From contig NW_017802379.1 of the NCBI RefSeq assembly GCF_001625305.1, positions 4,277,479 to 4,341,478 on the forward strand: a stretch of DNA of 64,000 nt, in the 5' to 3' direction. Position numbers and translations under genes: made by a program. This DNA comes from Branchiostoma belcheri (lineage: Eukaryota). A model generated the notes under the pieces. It saw only the letters and a list, made by a program, of their open reading frames with translations, was not told the DNA's origin and made no database searches. Of the stretch, positions 70-33,738 are shown in pieces (position 1 is the stretch's first letter; every line of letters starts with the position of its first letter).

Positions 70-1473
70 ATGCGGCACCAAAGCAGACATCTACACCCGG
101 CCAAGATTCTTGTCGTCCTGGGTTTGATGTTTGTCTCTCTGACGGTAGCTAGCGAAATATCAGCACTTGCCACCCTGCTTGTCCGAGGTTGTTCCATAAA
201 AGACTGGGGACAATTACCAGTGGTAGATTGTGACAACAAGGGGTTAACGAGCGTTCCAACAAAACTGCCCATGATACTGTTTAAACTTTACTTACCCAAC
301 AACCACCTGTCAACATTTCCATGTCGGAGTCTGCCCTTCCTGCACACCCTGAACCTAAGAAACAACACAATCACTGAAGTTTGCTGGGCCTGTCTGAGAG
401 ATCTGCCTAGGCTATCATACTTAGATTTGTCTTATAATAATATCTCCTGTGTCAAGCTCTTTCCGTTTCGGTTTTCCTTACGCAACCTCAACAAGTTGGA
501 CATTTCCTTTAACCGTCTGAAGACGCTGTCCTGGTGTGACTTAGGGATGACCTGGGGGGGCAGTGTTCCATATGCGGGGCTGATAGCTGGAAACCCTTTC
601 CACTGTGACTGCGACATTGCCTGGCTTATTGACATGGCAAAGGTTGCGGAACAGTGCCGGTTGGAGATAACCGTTCGCGGTATCGATGCTTGTCGTTCTG
701 AAATTGGCAAAAACGCGCTTGTCCGTGAGTTTCGCAGGGAACCGTCTTTGTTCCGCTGTAAGACACCCTCAGACCTGGTCGATGTTGAACTCTTCCGACT
801 AGATATCTCGCCATGTCGAGACTTCTGGAATCTTATGTTCCAAAATGAGACCCACGGCCCGCCTTGTCCTGCAGACGATTTCTGCCCCAGAGATGGGCAT
901 TCTAACGGCATTACTTCATCTTCGCTGCCGCCAACAACCAGTAGTTCCGGAATTGAGGAATCAAAAAGGAACCAAACTAAAATGTATCAGAATTTCCAAA
1001 ACGCGACAAATACTAGTATGCTTGACGTTAATAATGCAACCTTGGCGGCAGCAAGGACCTTCGGTCAGATTAAAGTCTCAAAAGAAATGTCTAATCCGTT
1101 AGACAAAAGTGACCAATCTTTGCCCATGACAAAAAGGCCCCCCAAACCAGACAAGTCATTTAAAGAGCCAGATACCCAGTTTTCAGGGTGGATGCTGACA
1201 ACTATAGTTGTTGTACTAATCGTTGCCACCTGTTGTGTAGTCTTGGTTGTGTACTGTATAATGGTTAAGTTCCAAGCCGGCAAACTGGCCGTCCAACCTA
1301 ACACCAACCTGCACGCTCCAGTCAATGATCAGAATAGCTGCCCCAGTGTCGTTCCGAAACCAGACTCAGACGACAGCGTTTACGAACACATTTCGGACGA
1401 CGACGAAGAAGAAGAACCTTATGCAAAGTCGTATGTTTTCGACGTTCCGCAGTATGAGATGACTAAGATTTAA
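70..1473 (+). CDS. Intronless leucine-rich-repeat type-I transmembrane protein (signal peptide, LRRNT, about 6 LRRs, LRRCT, Ser/Thr-rich N-glycosylated stalk, one TM helix, acidic cytoplasmic tail)
   Basis: Continuous 467-aa ORF starting at a real ATG. Hydrophobic N-terminus ILVVLGLMFVSLTVAS. Repeated LxxLxLxxNxI units. LRRCT motif NPFHCDCDIAWL. TM segment WMLTTIVVVLIVATCCVVLVVYCIMV. Tail SDDDEEEEPY. Confidence 0.8.
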   Translation: MRHQSRHLHPAKILVVLGLMFVSLTVASEISALATLLVRGCSIKDWGQLPVVDCDNKGLTSVPTKLPMILFKLYLPNNHLSTFPCRSLPFLHTLNLRNNTITEVCWACLRDLPRLSYLDLSYNNISCVKLFPFRFSLRNLNKLDISFNRLKTLSWCDLGMTWGGSVPYAGLIAGNPFHCDCDIAWLIDMAKVAEQCRLEITVRGIDACRSEIGKNALVREFRREPSLFRCKTPSDLVDVELFRLDISPCRDFWNLMFQNETHGPPCPADDFCPRDGHSNGITSSSLPPTTSSSGIEESKRNQTKMYQNFQNATNTSMLDVNNATLAAARTFGQIKVSKEMSNPLDKSDQSLPMTKRPPKPDKSFKEPDTQFSGWMLTTIVVVLIVATCCVVLVVYCIMVKFQAGKLAVQPNTNLHAPVNDQNSCPSVVPKPDSDDSVYEHISDDDEEEEPYAKSYVFDVPQYEMTKI

Positions 1474-3091: not shown

Positions 3092-3136
3092 TTATCGCTT
3101 CTGGTCTCCCAGGTCATCAATGTTGTCTTCATCAAT
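3092..3136 (-). CDS. DENR: DENR (density-regulated protein) exon 7, terminal, encodes IDEDNIDDLGDQKR*
   Basis: Acceptor ctctatttcag. Matches the DENR C-terminus DDDSIEDLGEVKK. Stop at 3092-3094. Candidate polyA signal (AATAAA on minus) near 2570. Confidence 0.8.
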   Translation of the reverse strand: MDEDNIDDLGDQKR

Positions 3137-3326
3137 CTGAAATAGAGGGATACACAAGTTTTCATTTCTTCTACTGCACAGTATTGGCAATTTGTTTACT
3201 TATTATTCCAAATAAATAAAGAAAATGATTCTTCTACCACTGATACATAGTCTGTCTATCCATCTATCCTCTAGGCTATAACAATCCTAACACGGCTGGT
3301 TCCCAGGCTATAATGATCCTACTGAC

Positions 3327-3466
3327 CTCAGGCCACTTCTCTGGGATCACATCAAAGATGTCGTCCGTCACGTCCCCTTGAATCACGATCTCGTCCTCAT
3401 CTGTTCTGGAGGCCCCACACGCAAACCTATTGGCAAAAAATTTTCTGGCTTGCTCTAGGTCAATAT
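3327..3466 (-). CDS. DENR: DENR exon 6 (SUI1 domain: [47 protein letters not shown])
   Basis: Strong similarity to the human DENR SUI1 domain ([35 protein letters not shown]). Acceptor ttcttcccacag. Donor GAG|gtcagt. Confidence 0.9.
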
Positions 3467-4072
3467 CTGTGGGAAGAAACAGGAAAAAATTGCTTTTCAT
3501 TTGGAGCAACTACTACTAGTACTAGTACTTTTATATTGTGTCTTTTTTTGGTTATATTACAAAATCGTCTGTCAAGGGCAATTTTGATCTGTTACAATTA
3601 AAAGGGACAGGATGAACTTTTAGGTCATCCAGCACAAAAATTTCTTTATGTCTTTAAAACTTAACACATTATCAATGGTCACAGCAGCATTAATGTTGTA
3701 ATAACTATTACAACATCATACAACACACCTCACTATCCAGGCTAATATTCTACAAACCAAATATTCTGTAATACACTACACTGCACACCATGACATAGAG
3801 CAGCAGGATTCAGCCCCTTGTTCAAATAAACACGTGTAAGGCAAACACACGTGCCACAGACTTGTTTTTCTCTCCCTTCCAGGTAATCACTTTTTCACTT
3901 CAGTTGGAGGGCAGGTCTTTTATTAGCCTTAATTGCACGGTTCGACTGTAAATGGAAAACAAATTGACAAGGAACTTCCTGTCAACATGTTTTTCAGTTG
4001 GGCCTACGCTGAAATGTTAATCTGCAAAATTGCCCTGCATGCGTACAAAACATACAAAAAGATGTTTTTATG

Positions 4073-4167
4073 GGTTCACCACACCACGAAGTGGTGTGGT
4101 GAAACCATATTGCTTTTTCTGATGTTTCTTCTCCTTCTCCTCCTCCTTCTCCTCCTCCTGCCATATC
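4073..4167. repeat. Near-perfect 16-bp inverted repeat (ggttcaccacaccac-gaa-gtggtgtggtgaaacc) followed by a (CT)n/CCT microsatellite, inside DENR intron 5
   Basis: Read directly from the sequence. The palindrome is why ORFs on both strands carry the same HHTTKWCGE peptide. Confidence 0.7.
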
Positions 4168-5148
4168 TTTAAATGGATTCAGCTTCTTCATTTTAGGGCC
4201 TAAGGTCCTGAAATTTGGTATGGAGGTACAGTGGGCAAATACCCCTAGGCGTTTTTTAAATTATTGTGATACAGGCTTTTAGAATGGTTTTATTTGAGTT
4301 TTTTGGCTGTGTAATAGCTAATGTATTACTGTGTAAGTGTGCAGTGTTTACCACATTTGGACATGAGTCATCACAATGGCATGCAAGGCATCAACCAATA
4401 GGCATGCAGCTTTCCTCTATTCTCCTTGCTGATTGGCTGTTGGGATTTAACTGGCTTAACTTCATTTACACCTGCACAGAGCCATGCCATACTGACAGTA
4501 TGTCTGTATTCAAGTGTTTTGGTAGGTATTTTAAGCTTTCCTGCTCCAGCATTGGAATGCGGGCTATGAACGCTTCTTTTTATCTTGAAAATCAACAGTT
4601 TGCATTATGCAATCCTAACCAATAATGTAGGGAATAGCTATCCAACTGTTGTAGTCTTAGTTGTATGTTACTTCATACTATAGTTATATCAATGTAAAGC
4701 ATTGTTTTCCCTTGTGTTTCTCATTCTTTCCCTGCCATGTGGTAAAATGTGGTGAACCCATCGCTGTATTTGCTCCAAAGCAAATATTGGCCTTTCTAGT
4801 TGGTACTTCTTTTTGTTGGGAGAACAGAGAATAGAGCTGTGGTAACATGTTATTACACGAAATTGGCTGGTAAACATTTGTATCATCTGATTGTCTACAA
4901 GTCTTCAACTGTCTAAAATCCATTCATTGTGTCATGTAAATGAACATTAGAAAGAAGCTACGAAGGAACCTAAGATTATGATGAATGTAAAAATTAAAAA
5001 CGTCAGGAAATAACCTTATTCCTTACAATTTTATTACTATTTCTTTGTTACTACATGTATATTCTTTGATGGGTTTGGTTTCACAATATCATTTTCCAGC
5101 AGTGTAATTCCCACCAAAATATGGTTGGAAAGAGGAAAGCAGGCTCAC

Positions 5149-5265
5149 CATATGTAGCTAACCCGCGTATCCTGGTCACATATTTCTTCTTGTTTCTCTG
5201 TACCCGTGCGATCGTCACCCCCTGTGGCTCCGCCTTCTTCTTGATTTTGATGTTGCCTCTGCCAC
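5149..5265 (-). CDS. DENR: DENR exon 5 ([39 protein letters not shown])
   Basis: Matches human [31 protein letters not shown]. Acceptor ctccaacag. Donor TATG|gtgagc. Phase-consistent with the flanking exons. Confidence 0.85.
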
Positions 5266-5594
5266 CTGTTGGAGGGATGGGACAAGGCAAAATACAACCA
5301 GCTTGATTGTGATTCTACATGGCTGAAATATGAAGAATGACAGGTAAGGTGAAGTCATCTCCACATAGGAGAAGCATGACGCCTTTTCAAGTAGCTAGCA
5401 GCAGTCAATGCAGTTGTGCTATGGCTCACATTTTTTCAGCCAAGCACACCAGGACACCCCTACTCTTCTTGATAATTGTGTTGGGTTCTTTTACAAACAG
5501 AGATTTGAACACAAGGCCACTGACAATATATGTCTCCATCTGAAAGTATCAATGCAAAGACTGCCTAAAACTAGTAAAAGTACAAGAAACTGAC

Positions 5595-5654
5595 CTCTCT
5601 TTTGTCTTCCCTTCTTGTCTGTGTCTCCTGTGTCTCCTCCTTCTGGGGGTTTCT
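5595..5654 (-). CDS. DENR: DENR exon 4 (acidic/basic linker EKPPEGGDTGDTDKKGRQKR)
   Basis: Acceptor ctgtcttgcag. Donor GAGAG|gtcagt. 60 nt and phase-consistent. Confidence 0.75.
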
Positions 5655-5848
5655 CTGCAAGACAGGAAAGAAACTACATGTATTAGTAATTTGTAGAAGA
5701 AACCTATAGATCCATTATGGCATAATACATGGCAACACAGCTATTAGAAGTAAATACTGAAAACCAACACTAAGTCTAAAGAATTACCAAGAGGAATCAA
5801 CATTGAGAAAGAAAAAAAAAAACAATGCAGAAATATTGCTATCCATAC

Positions 5849-5936
5849 CTGAGAGATATAACTTGCCAAATTCGGAGGGCAGGTTCTTCTCTAACCAGGC
5901 TTTACACTTGTCATTGTTTGGCATGTACTCACAGTA
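5849..5936 (-). CDS. DENR: DENR exon 3 ([29 protein letters not shown], zinc-binding region)
   Basis: Matches human [26 protein letters not shown]. Acceptor tctaccaacag. Donor TCAG|gtatgg. Confidence 0.85.
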
Positions 5937-6246
5937 CTGTTGGTAGATGAGGAAACAGGAAGTTAGATTATTTTGGCATTAAACTCATTTATGCTACATT
6001 AGTATTTTATGGACAATACAATCTTTAATACTAGTACTCAAATTAATTGTTATCCACACTTTACATTTACATCTTTTCAAAACACCAAAAGAGACACTTG
6101 CATATTCTTTCTACAGTGTCACAGTTAGGAAATCATGCAACGTCATTGATCACTGATGTGCAGTACTGATGCACAGCAGCAGGTGGGGCTGCTACACAGC
6201 AGCCTTGCTTCTCTATAGTCACAAAGGTTCAGCTAGAAAGCCTTAC

Positions 6247-6266
6247 CTCTACTGGTAGTGTGCATT
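6247..6266 (-). CDS. DENR: DENR exon 2, a 20-nt microexon (ECTLPVE)
   Basis: cag|AATGCACACTACCAGTAGAG|gtaagg. Restores the frame between exons 1 and 3 and gives YCGECTLPVEYCEYMP, matching human YCGVCSLPTEYCEYMP. Confidence 0.7.
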
Positions 6267-6485
6267 CTGAAATTGAGGCAAAAGAAAGACACATTAGAAA
6301 ACATGTCTTGACTTGATGTGAAAACTAAAACTGGTCCCTGTCAATGTAAGTAGAACTGTACTATTGCATGTGTATATCAATAAAGAAAAATGTGCTTCAC
6401 TGAACAAAGTCAGCAGCTTACTTCTCCAAAATTATTCTTAGCCATAAGGATGAAGGATTTTGTCAGTATCTTTTATGTTACCTAC

Positions 6486-6576
6486 CTCCACAGTATAAGA
6501 TCCTTAGAGGATATGATACATTTTTCTTTGGTGCTTTTGCTCCAGCCTCTGCTTCGGCTTCTTCTGTGGAAGCCAT
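6486..6576 (-). CDS. DENR: DENR exon 1 (MASTEEAEAEAGAKAPKKNVSYPLRILYCG)
   Basis: ATG at 6576-6574. Donor GGAG|gtaggt. Matches human DENR ...DYPLRVLYCG. Confidence 0.8.
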
Positions 6577-8119
6577 GTCCTTTCTGGGAAACAAAATTGA
6601 TTGACAATTGATTACAGATCTATGCTGGAAAAATGACAGTGGAACAAACTTGCTTCTACAATCATTATGCTACTTCTAATAATGAAAGAACCTACAGTAA
6701 CAGTTACACTGAAAAACTTCAAGTAGCCTCTTTGCAAGTGCCATGCACTTATTTGTTTTGATAGGGGAAGCCTCAGAAATTCTATTTCCCAATGTCGCTC
6801 AAATTCAAAAGTCTTTTCATAAATAACAGTTTCATAATTTGTAAATCTATCTGTAGTGACTTTGGTATGTCCAGATCATACCTTATCAGATTAACAAGTC
6901 CAAAAGATCACAACAACCTTTGAAAGGTACTCCTGTCATAATCTATTAATTCATTCTCCTCCTAGGATGAGGATGCTTCATACTAACCAAAGCTGAGAAC
7001 AAACAAAAGAAAACAGTACAAACACATACTGTTCACCACAAATGTTTATTTCTTTGGGTATTGCATGTCATTCTAATCTAATGAAACAGATGTACATATT
7101 GCAGCAAATACAACATGCCTTATAGCAACTGAGAAATGTATATGAAACAAGTGGTAATCTACAGCTAGCACTAAATAGCTGTGACCAAGATTGGATATTT
7201 TGGCCCCGTTTCAAAGTGCTCATATGACAAAACAGAAAAAACATTCAGACAAACTATATACATTGGCACATGTACCACTCAAGTCTGTTTAAGTTGGCAA
7301 TATATTCTCACTCTTAACTCCTCATGGCTAGTAAATCTGCATTCTGTTTAGTAACACTGAAGATAGATATCTATATCCTTACTTAAAATTGTCCACCAGG
7401 TTGAGTCTATAGATCTCTTGGCTAGTATATTATGTATATAATGTATTATGAAGGTAAATTTGACATGAAAATACAGATAAAATGAACAATAACCTTATCA
7501 ACATTAAAACAATATCTTAAGTGTGATAAAGATGATCTACGATTGTTTTACTAGGGTAGAATTCTTACATAGTCATGATCATTACTTTCCAACTTTGGCT
7601 TGTTTTTCAAATGGCACTGTTACAAAATGGCAACAGGTAATGTGTCCCAGCACTAGAGTACAACTAATCAGCACCAGTATTAGAGGGATCTTTGAAGCTA
7701 AACTCACTCTCTACTGCATGGTAATGCATTAAATGCCCTGTAAATATATCATGATTAGATTTTTCATTGTACACAATCAAACACAACAATTCTGCTTTCC
7801 TTACTTGCTTTTAGTTTTGACAATATGCATACTGGTCCCAGGATATAATATATACAGTTCTTGTACCAGTTTTATAATTCATGACTGACTACAGTATAAC
7901 ACAGAGACAATCCAAATGTAACTAATTGTCAGTTTTCAGCACACTAGATCTGGTAACATCTACATGTTAACACTAGCATGTTTTATTTTCATTGTACAAT
8001 ACAGGATCTATAATCCAAACAAGGCAGTTTGGTGTACAGTTCTCACTTAGCAAAACAGAATATTTCTGTCTGCGATTGCAACCCAACAACATCAGTGACT
8101 TAAAAAAAAAACTAGATTT

Positions 8120-9643
8120 CTATTTAATCTTCCTCTTGCTGTACAGCACTTTTTCAAAGGTTAGAGTCAGTTGAACTGAACAGTACATGGAAGCCAGAAG
8201 CTTTACTGTGACAAAGGGGAAGCCCGAAATGAAAAACTTATCGAAGTACACATAACCAGCGCTGGTCCCTCCAAGGAAGACTAAGTTAAACAGGATGAGG
8301 AAGGCTAGGATGGGAGCGTTACACAGTGCCTTCAACCTCCTCTGGTTCTGAGGTGAGAGTTGGCTTGTGTAATGTTGTACTGTGGCCGTCTTTGCAATGA
8401 TGGCGCCGGTAGATTCCACCACGATGCCAGTCCAGTTGAGGAGTCCCCATGCGATAAGATAGTACTGTCCACCGTGCCAGTAGCACACCATCCCGAAACA
8501 AGCTGCTGACGCCAGCAGCTGACGCACGATGCCCTTGTGAGACCCGCCCAGTGGTATGTAGATATATCGGACCAGGAAGGTGTGCAGGCCATTGTCGAAG
8601 TACCTCCACATGGCCGTAAACGTGTACAGCGCGCTGACGCATCGCGGGAACATCGGAGGTTCAATCCCATCCAGCATGGCAATGGTTGACGAGAAGCCAT
8701 AGAGGACCATGTACTTGACATGGAAGAACTGCACGTGAAGGTACCCTATACCGGTCACTTCCATCAGGGGCAGGTTTTCCAAGATGGAGATTTGCTGTTC
8801 AAGTTCACAGAAGTACAGCAGATGATACGCAGCCTCGGTGATGATGGCCCATATCGTAACACGGCACGCGCACCATGCAACACGTTCCAAGCGTGTCTTG
8901 TCCAACAGGATGGGATGTTTGATGTACTCGTGGAATGTGTTGTACGTGATGACAGGGCCATTGAAGAACAGGGGAATGTAGAAGTTGAACAAGAGGAAGT
9001 CAAACAGAGAATATGCCTTCTGGTCCCTGCGAAGTTTGCAGACTTCCAGGCTGAAGCTGAGCTGTCGGAGAATTGACATAGCCGCGGTGAAAAGTAGTAG
9101 ATAGTACGTGCTCTCGTCCTCCCCTGATAATGTGTACTGAAGTACTTTGAAAAGGCTGGAGTTGAGTGTGGCCACGATAAATATTCCTACCCCCCAGCAT
9201 AGGAGCGCTGACCGCAACAATGCAGCAGCGTAAAACACCATACAGTGGGCAAGAAGCACACAAAGAGGCTTCCACCCAAGCACTAAGTACAGGCACAGGA
9301 AACTGTAGGCTAAGTACGCTTCTCTTCTGTATTTTGAGAGGAACATTGACATCAGTCTACTGACCACGATATGGCCTACGAAACAAAACACAAGTCCTTC
9401 TTTTAAGTGCGTCTGCCAGAACACCCACTCAAAGTCTGCTATGTCCTTTTTTCTTCCTAGGAATGGTAGGAAGCTTGACTGGTCCAACTCTAGATCCTCA
9501 AAGAGGGTGTCCTCCATCTCCTTTGATAAGACATAGACCACATAGATGGAATAGAAAGCTGGACCACAGAATCCCAGAAAGTACAGGAGCATTTCAATCC
9601 TGGGAAGGCGGGCGGTGTCGGCAGACATCTTGCCTGAAGCCAT
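8120..9643 (-). CDS. HHAT: Hedgehog acyltransferase (HHAT / skinny hedgehog-like MBOAT), intronless
   Basis: 507-aa multi-pass membrane ORF with a real ATG. Motifs KKDIADFEWVFW, AMWRYFDNGLHTFLVRYIYIPLGGSHKG and YWHGGQYYLIAWGLLNWTGIVVE match human HHAT (KKDATDFEWSFW, GMWRYFDVGLHNFLIRYVYIPVGGSQHG, YWHGGYDYLWCWAALNWLGVTVE). The catalytic Asp and His residues are present. Confidence 0.85.
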   Translation of the reverse strand: MASGKMSADTARLPRIEMLLYFLGFCGPAFYSIYVVYVLSKEMEDTLFEDLELDQSSFLPFLGRKKDIADFEWVFWQTHLKEGLVFCFVGHIVVSRLMSMFLSKYRREAYLAYSFLCLYLVLGWKPLCVLLAHCMVFYAAALLRSALLCWGVGIFIVATLNSSLFKVLQYTLSGEDESTYYLLLFTAAMSILRQLSFSLEVCKLRRDQKAYSLFDFLLFNFYIPLFFNGPVITYNTFHEYIKHPILLDKTRLERVAWCACRVTIWAIITEAAYHLLYFCELEQQISILENLPLMEVTGIGYLHVQFFHVKYMVLYGFSSTIAMLDGIEPPMFPRCVSALYTFTAMWRYFDNGLHTFLVRYIYIPLGGSHKGIVRQLLASAACFGMVCYWHGGQYYLIAWGLLNWTGIVVESTGAIIAKTATVQHYTSQLSPQNQRRLKALCNAPILAFLILFNLVFLGGTSAGYVYFDKFFISGFPFVTVKLLASMYCSVQLTLTFEKVLYSKRKIK

Positions 9644-10679
9644 GGCTGGGGAGGCTTTGTCAAAACCAGTCCACGGCGTATATGCAAATTCCGGGATTGT
9701 TCACCTGGTAATTTCCAGCCGAGTACAGCCAACCATCTGCAAGAACAGGCCACAAGATTCTCTCAGTATTTGACGTCAAAACGTGAGCAACCATGGCAAA
9801 TGCCATGAAGGGAAAGTTTGACAAGACGCACATTGGACACAACGAAGGTACACAGTCCTGCTCTGTTTTTGTTTGTTTGTTTGAATGCATTACATCATGA
9901 CCACCTTATGGCTTCTGTCCATCATCAACAGTTGACTTCACCTGACAACATTTTGCAATTTTTACCACACCCGTATTTTTGCCAATGCCATATCTGTTGT
10001 ATGTTTTAAAGAAAACAAAAACACTACCACTGACACTAGGTCCATTTTCTTTTTGCAGTTCCCTTTGTAGAACATTAATATTTTAGTATTGTGTGACATA
10101 CTATATTTTAGTCTGTGTATTGTACTGTATCATATGGAATATGTAGATCAGTGATATAGTGTGGAGGGTTGGTGATTTGGTGGTGTGGTGAGTGTTTCAT
10201 GTAGATAAAAAAAAACATTTCTTTGAGAAAATTTCCTTCTCATAAATCATGACAAGGAAATTTCCTCACATGAATAATTTTATTTTTTAATGATGTGCAC
10301 GTGAACATGTGTTGATGGTTTTACAAATCATCAACACTTAAACATACGTTAGGTTCAGTAGAATGGCACATTTTAAGCGACACAATTGTGGCACATACAC
10401 GTTTTTAACCTTGTTTCGTTAAACATGACGTGTCTTATTATGACTGGTTCCTACTACCCCCCTCCCCTTTCAACAAAAAGCATGTAATATCATGTATGGA
10501 ACTCGCGTGGTTCACATGCCGCAAATCACAGTAAGTTTTTCACACCATTAAACCCATCATTGCTCCTTACATTTTACTATTTTGAGTGAATGGCTCTTAT
10601 CTACATAGTCTAAGAAAAAAATCCCGTAAATGTGTTTCTGTGTGATGAAAATCGATGAAAACTTACCAGAAATTTCGCA

Positions 10680-25904: not shown

Positions 25905-26503
25905 GACAAGTCCGTATCAGACAGACGTCTCTCGGGCGCATCCCCTCCATCCAATCGTAGCCCATCTCCGAGAAGACGACGGGAGTCATCGCGGTCGGCA
26001 AGTCGGAGTCCCCGGAAGTCTCCCTCACCTGTGGACCAGCGAGAAAAGTCCCACAACAAAAACAACTCAAGATACTCCAAGTCTCCTAGTAAATCCAAGA
26101 TGTCAAGGTCACCTAAAAGATCAAGATCACCAAGGAGTTCACCTAAAGTTTCAAGGTCGCCAAGAAGGTCAAGGACATCACAGACACCATCGCCCAGAAG
26201 GTCTCTCTCGCCCAGGAAGGGATATAAGGGTTCAAGGTCATCAAGGAGCCCTTCTCCAAAGCGTAAGAGGTCAAGATCGCCCAAGAAGAAGGCACACAGG
26301 AGTAAGGGGTCTCCTGAAGGGAGGCACAGACTGAAATCCCCGGACAGGAGACGGCGTTCCCGTGACAGGGCGCGAGGGTCACGGGACAGTCCTGTCCGCA
26401 GGTCATCCAGAGACTGGGAGAAGGGCAAGTCCAAGGACAGGAGGGACTCGCGAAGGTCACCGGACAGGAGACGACGGAGGTCACGTTCAAGGTCACCTCC
26501 CAG
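25905..26503 (+). CDS. RSRC2: RSRC2-like exon 4, a 599-nt RS/SPR-rich exon
   Basis: Acceptor cttcttcccaaaacag. Donor CCAG|gtttgt. Dense SRSP/RRS/SPK repeats. Confidence 0.8.
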
Positions 26504-26670
26504 GTTTGTTCAGGCCTTCTTTTATTTGCACTTTGTATGTTACCAAGTCCCTGCTTTACATCAAAATTATCAGTTTTGTCATAGAGAGAATTGCCGTACC
26601 AGTTGTATGATTTTGAGTCAAACACTTGATAAAACATCTAACATTTTCTCTGTGTTCCTCTGATCTGTAG

Positions 26671-31633: not shown

Positions 31634-33466
31634 TTAAGCTTTCTTGTATTTCAGTATTGTAACTGAGAAGTGGCAGTTGACAGCTTCAGGTAGTGGTAGG
31701 GAGAAGGTGAGAGTGTTGGTGCCTGGGTCGTAACACTGCACCGTGTCCAGGCTCTGGTCTGCCTCCTCTGTAGATCTCTGCTCGCGGTCCGACCCCCCTG
31801 TGATGTACAACTTCCCGTTACACGCTGCAATACCGCAGAACTCCCACAGGGTGAGCCTCTCCGCTAGCGAGATCCACGTGTCCGCCTTTGGGTCATAGCA
31901 CAAGATGGCCGGCAGCTTCCCACCTACTACATAGATGAGAGAGTTAAGTAGAGCAGCGTTGATGCACTCCCCCTTCCTGGGCATCGGTGCTCTGGTTTCC
32001 CAGCAGTTTTTGTCGGAGACATAGCACTGGACTTGAGGACTGCACACGCCAGTCTGCCCCTTCCCGCCTATGACGTACAGTTTTCCATCACAACTTGCAA
32101 TGGCAAAGGACGATACTGGATTGAGCAATTGCTTCCCTTCCATCCACTCATTTCTGTTGGGATCATAGACCTCGACACTGTCTAAATACTTGCAGCCATC
32201 ATCTTTCGAGCTGTCGTAACCCCCAACAGCGTACACTTTTCCATTGAGAACTGCCATCTTGTGTCTGCTTCTACGCTGGGCCAAAGAAGACAGCTTACGC
32301 CATGTGCTGAGCTTTGTGTCAAGCTCCCAGACTGCTGAGCCTTTCCAGCTGCCCCCTGACACGATGATGTTGTTGTGTAATGTGACTGCCGCATACTCGA
32401 CAGAGTTACGGAAATCGATGGCGAGGTCTAACAGGTCGTTATCCCACAACTGTTCTTTGGGGTCGAAACAGTTGATGTGATTGGTCGATACGTCTTCTTC
32501 ATTTTCCACGTGGGTCACGCCTCCTCCAACAACGAGAACCTGCGTGATGCCCGACCTTTCCCGGTGAACTGTCCGCGTGGAAGAAACCTCCTCGGGGGAC
32601 AGGTGATAGATGGTTGCCTCCTCCATCAGACTCTCGAACCCTTCTGTTTTATTCACTAACTCGTTCCTGCGCACATTTCTGACGACTGACACTGGATCCA
32701 TCAGAGGGAACCTGATTTGTGGAAGCAGGTCTTTCAGCTGCGGCCCGCGGGACTTTTTATCGCACTGCACCCACCGTAACAGTGCTTCATATACCAGCTC
32801 CTCTTTACTCACGTTCAGCCTGTTGTCAGACATGTAATGTGCCAGCTCACCTGCTTCCAGCTGAGAAAACTCCTCCATTTGACAGACTTCCTGAAAGTGT
32901 TCCAGTACAAAGTCCTGTGCTTTCTCTGCGAGCTCCGTACAGCACAGCGCTGAGGCAAAACGATGGATCCCGAGACAGTTTCCTGTTTCTAACATCTTCC
33001 CGAGGTACTTGGCACACGCCTCCACTATGGGTGTGAGCTGCATCAGGTTAGCAGCCTCCAGCAGCTGCTGTACATTAGTCTTGTTGATGACCAGTTCTGA
33101 GGAGTAGATGTAACTCAGGATGGATTCTAGGATTGAGGGGTTCATGTTTTTGATGACCACCTTCGTCTGTTTGGTCTCCTTGAGTCCGTTGGTGAACATG
33201 GCCTGGAAGTACCCGCTGCAGCACGACAGAATGGCACGGTGGCACGGGAACTCCCGGTTTCCCGCACAGAGAACCACGTCCACCAGACAGTGGTCTGTAC
33301 GAAGCCGCTGTAGGCCCTCCAGTACGTTGGTGGCGTGGCTTGCGTTGGTGAACTTCTCATTACTGGTTGGATCACTGTCCACAGATGTGTCTGACTGTGC
33401 ATTTGAGGAAAGTTGGGTTGTTTCTGGACACGTTGTGCACTCAGGAACCACTTGTACACCGGCCAT
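31634..33466 (-). CDS. Intronless Kelch-like (KLHL) protein: BTB/POZ + BACK + six Kelch repeats, ~610 aa
   Basis: BTB region CLVDVVLCAGNREFPCHRAILSCCSGYFQAMFTNGLKE.. with BACK and six Kelch repeats in one ORF. The likely start is ATG 33466-33464 (MAGVQ), with an alternative in-frame ATG at 33502. The TTG at 33535 shown in the ORF track is not a real start. Confidence 0.85.
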   Translation of the reverse strand: MAGVQVVPECTTCPETTQLSSNAQSDTSVDSDPTSNEKFTNASHATNVLEGLQRLRTDHCLVDVVLCAGNREFPCHRAILSCCSGYFQAMFTNGLKETKQTKVVIKNMNPSILESILSYIYSSELVINKTNVQQLLEAANLMQLTPIVEACAKYLGKMLETGNCLGIHRFASALCCTELAEKAQDFVLEHFQEVCQMEEFSQLEAGELAHYMSDNRLNVSKEELVYEALLRWVQCDKKSRGPQLKDLLPQIRFPLMDPVSVVRNVRRNELVNKTEGFESLMEEATIYHLSPEEVSSTRTVHRERSGITQVLVVGGGVTHVENEEDVSTNHINCFDPKEQLWDNDLLDLAIDFRNSVEYAAVTLHNNIIVSGGSWKGSAVWELDTKLSTWRKLSSLAQRRSRHKMAVLNGKVYAVGGYDSSKDDGCKYLDSVEVYDPNRNEWMEGKQLLNPVSSFAIASCDGKLYVIGGKGQTGVCSPQVQCYVSDKNCWETRAPMPRKGECINAALLNSLIYVVGGKLPAILCYDPKADTWISLAERLTLWEFCGIAACNGKLYITGGSDREQRSTEEADQSLDTVQCYDPGTNTLTFSLPLPEAVNCHFSVTILKYKKA

Positions 33467-33738
33467 GGTGTTGTTAAAATCTGGGAACAAACATTGCAGC
33501 ATGTAAACATGGACTAAAGACGGTACATACATCAATATCTCGTCAAGAAAAATTTAAGAGTCCAAATTACCATCAACATCTCAAATGTCTGAAACTAAGT
33601 ACATGTGTTCAAAGTGTGACAGATGTAGATAACCCTCTACTGATGAGGTAAATATGGGTATGGACCAAACAATGTTTCTTTCTCGTTTGTGGCCAGTTTT
33701 TCCTTCAGCCTGTGCTGACAAAATCTAAGTCCGGTGAA

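Follow-up and report, generated by a model that had tools for sequence, protein, structure and literature searches.

Hedgehog acyltransferase (HHAT) is an MBOAT enzyme of the ER membrane that attaches palmitate, taken from palmitoyl-CoA, to the N-terminal cysteine of Hedgehog, and its catalytic histidine is what sets it apart from vertebrate HHATL. Reverse-transcriptase-mediated intron loss is a general phenomenon, as are 'orphan' or replacement retrogenes, and the simplest model of such loss predicts that a kept intron lies at the 5′ end of the gene. A close arrangement of genes is described at the cholinergic locus, where an intronless VAChT gene is nested in the first intron of ChAT and the 5′ exon is shared. 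Amphioxus is said, on the word of the 2008 amphioxus genome paper, to keep the ancestral chordate exon–intron structure.

The locus described here lies in an amphioxus window, by which we mean the whole 64,000-nucleotide stretch of DNA that was analyzed, and carries an HHAT coding sequence (CDS) without introns upstream of DENR. Set against the usual conservation of amphioxus genes, amphioxus HHAT is a clean local exception because all ten ancestral introns are lost from this copy and nine of ten from its sister. We consider it likely that the lancelet lineage lost the ten ancestral introns, nine of them before a duplication and the tenth after it, that the duplication took place at the DNA level on the same chromosome, and that the window copy is a functional HHAT. 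The case is one of lineage-specific wholesale intron loss together with lineage-specific duplication, a known kind of event of which this is a new example.

The HHAT coding sequence and its conservation

The coding sequence and the motifs that hold its key residues are positioned in the window as follows.

8120..9643, minus strand: complete HHAT CDS, 507 codons plus stop in one exon, supported by the ORF, the MBOAT domain, the match to human HHAT, the orthologous CDSs and dN/dS
8633..8647, minus strand: PRCVS with Cys335 (FPRCVS here, LPRCVS in human)
8582..8605, minus strand: RYFDNGLH, residues 347–354, with Asp350; aligned to 7MHY (human RYFDVGLH)
8468..8482, minus strand: YWHGG, residues 388–392, with His390, the MBOAT signature histidine; aligned to human YWHGG

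The ORF runs uninterrupted from ATG to stop over 507 codons on the minus strand at 8120..9643. Given the local base composition, 507 sense codons in a row would arise by chance with a probability of ~1e-14, and the G+C content is 49% in the ORF versus 33.5% in its 3′ flank. 'Single exon' is used here of the coding sequence only, and the UTRs are outside the claim. The best database match of the encoded protein is a 507-residue Branchiostoma protein. Its 90% cluster contains no transcriptome-derived members.

The protein carries the Pfam MBOAT domain PF03062 (E = 1.1e-30; 107.5 bits against a cutoff of 27). Residues 13–493 are collinear with residues 2–483 of the solved human HHAT chain 7MHY_A (E = 2.1e-96), and no insertion suggestive of a retained intron appears in the alignment to the human HHAT structures. 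Three of these structures, 7MHY, 7Q1U and 7URF, are matched over the full length (E ~ 1e-96); the best solved chain that is not HHAT is DltB, at E = 0.0017. All 68 named matches from outside amphioxus at E ≤ 1e-10 are HHAT, and those from vertebrates are HHAT proper, with 34–40% identity over ~97% of the length. In a tree that included no HHATL or PORCN outgroup, the window protein clusters with deuterostome HHATs. Orthology is further backed by the sister paralog described below, whose intron has an ancestral position and phase specific to HHAT.

The CDS is shared by close relatives. B. belcheri, B. lanceolatum and one haplotype of a hybrid assembly all have a single 1,524-nt CDS exon upstream of DENR, and no indels occur between the window CDS and the three orthologous CDSs. 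The initial annotation had described 507 contiguous codons and had called for a comparison of gene structure in related species; the three orthologous loci agree with it on the first point and answer the second with the same intronless CDS. Identity to the window protein is 99.2% for B. belcheri KAI8507224.1 (96.8% at the nucleotide level), 98.6% for haplotype B of the hybrid assembly, 92.9% for the B. lanceolatum ortholog and 90.7% for haplotype A. These figures place the window in amphioxus, in B. belcheri or a near relative of it, and a vertebrate origin is rejected. Pairwise dN/dS is 0.07–0.09 at dS values of 0.43–0.53, and it falls to 0.025 when the nearly identical B. belcheri allele is compared. 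Third codon positions take 65–81% of the interspecies substitutions in every 150-codon segment of the ORF. Judged from these substitution patterns, the intronless HHAT is functional and under purifying selection over its whole length.

Two other accounts of the ORF were rejected. A hidden intron or frameshift is ruled out by the alignment to human HHAT and by the coding signal along the ORF, and a pseudogene is ruled out by the retained motifs, the HHAT matches and the dN/dS values.

The catalytic center appears intact. Asp350 and His390, the counterparts of the human catalytic residues Asp339 and His379, both fall in motifs that align with the human ones, in keeping with the earlier claim that the catalytic Asp (RYFDNGLH) and His (YWHGG) are retained. 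Cys335 is the counterpart of human Cys324, a heme ligand in the solved structures. Trp348 lies in an MWRYFD motif that aligns with MWRYFD in human HHAT, and it corresponds to the human gate Trp335. A reading of the amphioxus protein as HHATL-like and without catalytic activity, or as a duplicate in decay, instead of as an active Hedgehog acyltransferase, is highly improbable. NCBI does label it 'HHAT-like', and the canonical function could sit in the second paralog described below. However, '-like' is a generic suffix in that name, and all vertebrate matches are to HHAT proper (35–40% identity over ~97% of the length). All four key residues (catalytic Asp, catalytic His, heme Cys and gate Trp) are kept, dN/dS stays at 0.07–0.09 over a dS of ~0.5, and the window copy is nearer to the outgroup HHATs than the paralog is. 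The same residues, matches and ratios uphold the earlier view of the product as HHAT rather than HHATL-like. On every sequence-level criterion that was tested, the product of the amphioxus ORF is an HHAT, and it would be expected to act enzymatically on Hedgehog.

Ancestral introns, the second copy and the intronless state

Exact exon boundaries were mapped for several HHAT genes and then placed on the protein alignment. HHAT has 11 coding exons in Takifugu, 11 in Diadema and 10 in Ptychodera, where the protein of the gene model stops before the alignment's C-terminal part. The introns of all three fall in identical alignment columns, with the phases 1,0,0,0,0,1,2,2,0,1 for the ten introns, and a 36-nt microexon lies between ancestral introns 7 and 8. 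Because the introns of pufferfish, acorn worm and sea urchin coincide, the deuterostome ancestor had an intron-rich HHAT, and the amphioxus condition is a derived one. The contrast first drawn, between about ten coding exons in vertebrates and one here, stands as far as the counts go, with 11 exons in Takifugu. It is a comparison across subphyla, since the host is a cephalochordate, and there is no vertebrate anomaly to explain.

Amphioxus has a second HHAT gene, which is ~54% identical to the intronless copy and is flanked by MYO18A-like and KDM2-like genes. It has one intron only, at codon 359 in phase 2, which matches ancestral intron 8 exactly in both column and phase; the intron measures 203 nt in B. 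lanceolatum, 580 nt in B. belcheri and ~557 nt in B. floridae. The paralog also retains the Asp, His, Cys and Trp residues and has a dN/dS of 0.095. A paralog with an intron had been proposed as something to look for, and one exists, but it is nearly intronless, having just ancestral intron 8. A third, intron-rich amphioxus HHAT was not found in a protein search that recovered vertebrate homologs at 30–40% identity.

A neighbor-joining tree (491 columns, 200 bootstraps, no HHATL outgroup) unites the two amphioxus groups in a single clade with 100% bootstrap support and supports each of them at 100% as well. The duplication is therefore specific to cephalochordates and older than the Branchiostoma radiation. 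By this phylogeny, vertebrate HHAT has two co-orthologs specific to cephalochordates, and the amphioxus intronless gene is one of them. The intronless copy has the shorter branch, lying at a mean distance of 1.24 from ten outgroups, against 1.42–1.45 (mean 1.44) for the paralog. The copy beside DENR has thus changed less than the other and probably serves as the principal enzyme.

Both copies are on one chromosome. They lie at 25.47 Mb and 22.91 Mb of B. lanceolatum CM068847.1, 2.56 Mb apart, and at 0.60 Mb and 1.76 Mb of a B. belcheri scaffold, 1.17 Mb apart. The two B. floridae proteins are each recorded on a contig of 23,529,748 bp, where the analysis covered the paralog locus. No flank homology was detected between the two paralog loci, and the CDSs themselves are just 65–72% identical over parts. 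Within 10 kb of the Ptychodera or Diadema HHAT, none of DENR, KDM2 and MYO18A is present, and tblastn for DENR was negative; the neighbors there are a methyltransferase gene in Ptychodera and TMEM187 and an aldose epimerase gene in Diadema. Outgroup synteny points to neither amphioxus locus as the original one, and the flank comparison favors neither mode of duplication.

Since ancestral intron 8 is the only one in the sister copy, parsimony places the loss of at least nine introns ahead of the duplication. The lancelet lineage would have purged these nine ancestral deuterostome introns, after which HHAT would have been duplicated at the DNA level within the same chromosome and the copy beside DENR would have precisely lost intron 8. 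Whichever way the duplication took place, the introns were probably removed through reverse-transcribed mRNA, partly or fully spliced, that either recombined with the gene or was inserted. The survival of intron 8 beside the microexon suggests a partly spliced template.

The intron kept in the paralog lies in the 3′ third of the gene, a position that misfits the simplest 3′-biased cDNA-recombination model. This misfit calls for a partly spliced template or for more than one event.

For the last of these steps, duplication of DNA followed by loss of intron 8 from the window copy is the reading we moderately favor. A tentative alternative, which we regard as somewhat unlikely, is that the window copy arose as a processed retrogene: an HHAT mRNA with all introns spliced out, whose source was either the one-intron paralog lineage or an older gene rich in introns, would have been reverse-transcribed, inserted upstream of DENR, recruited a local and possibly bidirectional promoter, and become the main or an additional HHAT. 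Such an insertion agrees with a CDS without introns beside a sister copy that has an ancestral one, and it would account for the duplication and the last intron loss in one event, where the DNA route requires a duplication and a separate loss. It also agrees with the tight fit of the gene between unrelated neighbors, next to a highly conserved promoter-like block that it shares with the divergent neighbor, a setting in which retrogenes typically borrow regulatory sequence.

Other observations tell against insertion of a processed copy. No poly(A) remnant and no target-site duplications were found, although both would be expected to have decayed since an event of this age, before the Branchiostoma radiation. 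From the HHAT stop codon to DENR there is no run of at least seven A residues, and around the ORF there are only short repeats at chance level, so that the suggested search for such remnants flanking 8120–9643 yielded nothing beyond chance matches. A retrogene is expected to insert unlinked to its parent, whereas the two copies are 1.2–2.6 Mb apart on one chromosome; a random insertion that near has a probability of ~1%, as roughly estimated from the size of the genome. The copy without introns also evolves more slowly, which is the opposite of the usual retrocopy pattern. Intron counts discriminate poorly, with none in the window copy, one in the sole candidate parent and ten in the ancestor: the parent is nearly intronless itself, lacking nine of the ten. 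Because the loss mostly predates the duplication, zero introns are weak evidence for retroposition. Most of the retrogene features that could be tested are lacking in the window HHAT. Between a retrocopy and lineage-specific intron loss, the two origins initially offered, intron loss is favored, and linkage and slow evolution tell against the retrocopy.

Flanking sequences and the DENR gene

Upstream of the ATG, the window holds two features of interest.

9644..9835, minus strand: strongly conserved block upstream of the HHAT ATG, from a four-sequence alignment
from ~9793, plus strand: candidate first coding exon of the divergent neighbor gene, from the B. belcheri annotation

The upstream block spans ~190 nt and has 43 consecutive invariant columns across the four sequences, despite a dS of ~0.5. 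It contains TGACGTCA, an acceptor-like cctgttcttgcag/ATGG with a branch-point-like TACTGAG before it, and a donor-like AG/GTGA 32 nt beyond the acceptor-like site. Upstream ATGs are present as well, including that of a 48-codon uORF that is open in all four sequences and has a nucleotide-invariant core. In the B. belcheri annotation, the start codon of the divergent gene is 150 nt from the HHAT ATG. The block probably functions as 5′ leader and promoter, and it may be a compact bidirectional promoter.

Downstream, the features are all on the same strand as HHAT.

7998..8102, minus strand: conserved 3′UTR block of ~105 nt, just after the HHAT stop, from the alignment
7982..7987, minus strand: proximal AATAAA, 132 nt past the HHAT stop, with AATGAA in the other three sequences, from the alignment
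7045..7050, minus strand: distal AATAAA with a GU-rich stretch after it, unchanged across the four sequences, from the alignment
3095..6583, minus strand: DENR gene downstream of HHAT, 7 coding exons, located by tblastn of amphioxus DENR proteins and a microexon search
6576-6487; 6266-6247; ~5939-5850; 5661-5593; 5266-5150; 3467-3324; 3139-3095, minus strand: DENR coding exons

The distal AATAAA is likely the main HHAT polyadenylation signal, and its use would imply a 3′UTR of ~1.07 kb. DENR has the seven coding exons first attributed to it, and the microexon counted among them measures 20 nt (6266-6247). Pfam DENR_N and SUI1 domains are found on orthologous DENR gene models. The DENR ATG is at 6576, with the HHAT stop at 8120, and a conserved TTTCCCAG acceptor lies 8 nt upstream of that ATG. 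Because this conserved acceptor precedes the ATG, DENR must have an upstream non-coding exon.

Public gene models repeatedly join the two genes. Three HHAT–DENR fusion models were found, of 674 residues in B. floridae and B. belcheri and of 543 residues in B. lanceolatum. The 674-residue fusion consists of HHAT 1–485, the tripeptide IKD and DENR 1–186, joined via a weak donor, CAT/GTACTG. In recent RefSeq entries, HHAT appears as 'isoform X1' and DENR as 'isoform X2/X3' with consecutive accession numbers, which suggests that NCBI treats HHAT and DENR as one gene on transcript evidence. The ordinary explanation for such joins is read-through between tightly spaced tandem genes.

It is also conceivable, but distinctly unlikely in our judgment, that amphioxus HHAT and DENR belong to a single conserved unit of transcription, with the near-invariant block as shared promoter and 5′ exon. 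Transcripts would then either traverse the HHAT ORF to its own poly(A) signal or splice past it to the acceptor before the DENR ATG. The two ORFs are indeed closely spaced on the same strand, with an acceptor ahead of the DENR ATG. DENR may equally well have a first exon of its own, beyond the HHAT poly(A) signal and ahead of its ATG exon. If the unit were shared, an intron-free HHAT cassette would be a structural requirement of nesting in the first intron of another gene, and this would explain why the last intron was lost from the window copy and not from the paralog.

Significance and comparison with known systems

The HHAT gene models are already public in RefSeq and GenBank, and in a search of the available literature no paper was found that treats the structure of HHAT genes in amphioxus or connects HHAT to DENR. 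The biochemistry of HHAT is unchanged by these results, whose value lies in annotation and evolutionary book-keeping. Within those bounds, the amphioxus pair offers a possible small case study of intron loss, both in the template (a cDNA partly or fully spliced) and in timing (before or after duplication). To our knowledge, amphioxus has a single Hedgehog gene. Judging by constraint and retained residues, it has two HHAT genes that are apparently catalytically competent, and the pairing of one Hedgehog gene with two such enzymes raises a modest question of how work is divided between them.

The window protein resembles human HHAT in its full-length collinear MBOAT architecture and in four aligned residues, namely catalytic Asp and His, heme-ligand Cys and gate Trp. 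Unlike human HHAT, it has a 12-residue N-terminal extension. Where a vertebrate HHAT, that of Takifugu, has 11 coding exons, the amphioxus gene has one, and amphioxus has two copies of the gene.

At the HHAT/DENR locus, as at VAChT/ChAT, an intronless ORF lies upstream of a multi-exon gene in the same orientation, with an acceptor at the ATG exon of that gene, and annotations merge HHAT with DENR. The likeness is one of sequence and annotation. The products also differ, those of HHAT and DENR being functionally unrelated, unlike those of the cholinergic locus.

The precise removal of many or all introns, with no intron-rich copy found in the genome, is what amphioxus HHAT has in common with reverse-transcriptase-mediated intron loss and 'orphan' retrogenes. 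It differs from them in being without scars, in the linkage of its copies and in a kept intron that is not at the 5′ end. The HHAT homolog of the jellyfish Rhopilema esculentum, like the amphioxus gene, has a single coding exon, of 1,503 nt. It belongs to an independent lineage, is 38% identical and adjoins a piggyBac-type transposase gene rather than DENR; its intron loss is presumably convergent and independent. The jellyfish homolog shows that complete intron loss is tolerable for HHAT.

Possible transcriptional linkage of HHAT and DENR

Gene models in three species fuse the intronless HHAT gene to the downstream DENR gene (window 6487-9643, minus strand); the proteins behind this annotation are P0077, P0080, P0085, P0076, P0079, P0082 and P0083. 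A 674-aa fusion model consists of HHAT residues 1-485, the tripeptide IKD and the entire DENR protein, with its junction using a donor near 8187 and an acceptor at 6584. RefSeq accession numbers for HHAT "isoform X1" and DENR "isoform X2/X3" are also consecutive, as if they belonged to one gene. Together with the fused models, these accessions indicate that read-through from HHAT into DENR, or a shared transcription unit, is possible. Two AATAAA signals lie 3′ of HHAT, and only about 460 nt separate the distal one from the DENR ATG exon that follows it.

Candidate polyadenylation signals 3′ of HHAT
7982-7987, minus strand: proximal AATAAA, specific to the window, with AATGAA in the other sequences
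7045-7050, minus strand: distal AATAAA, invariant, with a GU-rich tail

The region 5′ of HHAT

Between-species comparison revealed a near-invariant block immediately upstream of the HHAT ATG, with 43 invariant columns in a row against a dS of about 0.5. It contains TGACGTCA, the acceptor-like cctgttcttgcag and a donor-like AG|GTGA, as well as two upstream ORFs of 11 and 48 codons. The 48-codon ORF is open in all four sequences compared (the window and its orthologous loci in B. belcheri, B. lanceolatum and one hybrid-assembly haplotype), but its core is invariant at the nucleotide level.

A neighbouring gene is predicted to be transcribed divergently, and its candidate first coding exon is separated from the HHAT ATG by only 150 nt. 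Hybrid haplotype A carries a disrupted version of this exon, which B. belcheri and B. lanceolatum conserve. The neighbour's gene models encode 509-537 aa, with a start site that varies between assemblies and no Pfam domain in any of them, and the one in B. lanceolatum extends across HHAT on the other strand.

Features upstream of HHAT
9644-9835: near-invariant block
~9793-9850, plus strand: candidate first coding exon of the divergent neighbour, with ACCATGG... and MANAMKGKFDKTHIGHNE followed by a GT donor

Other ORFs in the window

The long KLHL-type ORF is apparently another single coding exon. The product of the leucine-rich-repeat ORF is hydrophobic at its N-terminus and resembles a transmembrane segment towards its C-terminus, so that this ORF is probably a one-exon gene for an LRR membrane protein. 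Neither the 210-aa nor the 222-aa ORF has a Pfam match; the former may be one exon of a gene for an SR-like protein.

ORFs
70-1473, plus strand: 467 aa, uninterrupted, leucine-rich repeats
26031-26663, plus strand: 210 aa, extremely Arg/Ser/Pro-rich
31634-33535, minus strand: 633 aa, uninterrupted, BTB, BACK and Kelch repeats
54313-54981, minus strand: 222 aa

HHAT copies in amphioxus and beyond

The one-intron HHAT paralog in the B. floridae reference (locus L010) carries a frameshift in exon 1 (L010:10995-11005), due either to misassembly or to a null allele, and is flagged "LOW QUALITY PROTEIN" in RefSeq. The two amphioxus copies have different neighbours: a KDM2-like gene adjoins the paralog (L002, L010), and DENR adjoins the intronless HHAT in the window. 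Human KDM2B and DENR both lie on 12q24.31; on that basis, both amphioxus copies may fall within one old synteny block, which in vertebrates would be without HHAT. The HHAT homolog of the jellyfish Rhopilema esculentum is likewise a single coding exon (L008:2001-3503), adjoined by a piggyBac-type (DDE_Tnp_1_7) transposase gene, and presumably represents an independent case within the HHAT family of the loss of every intron.
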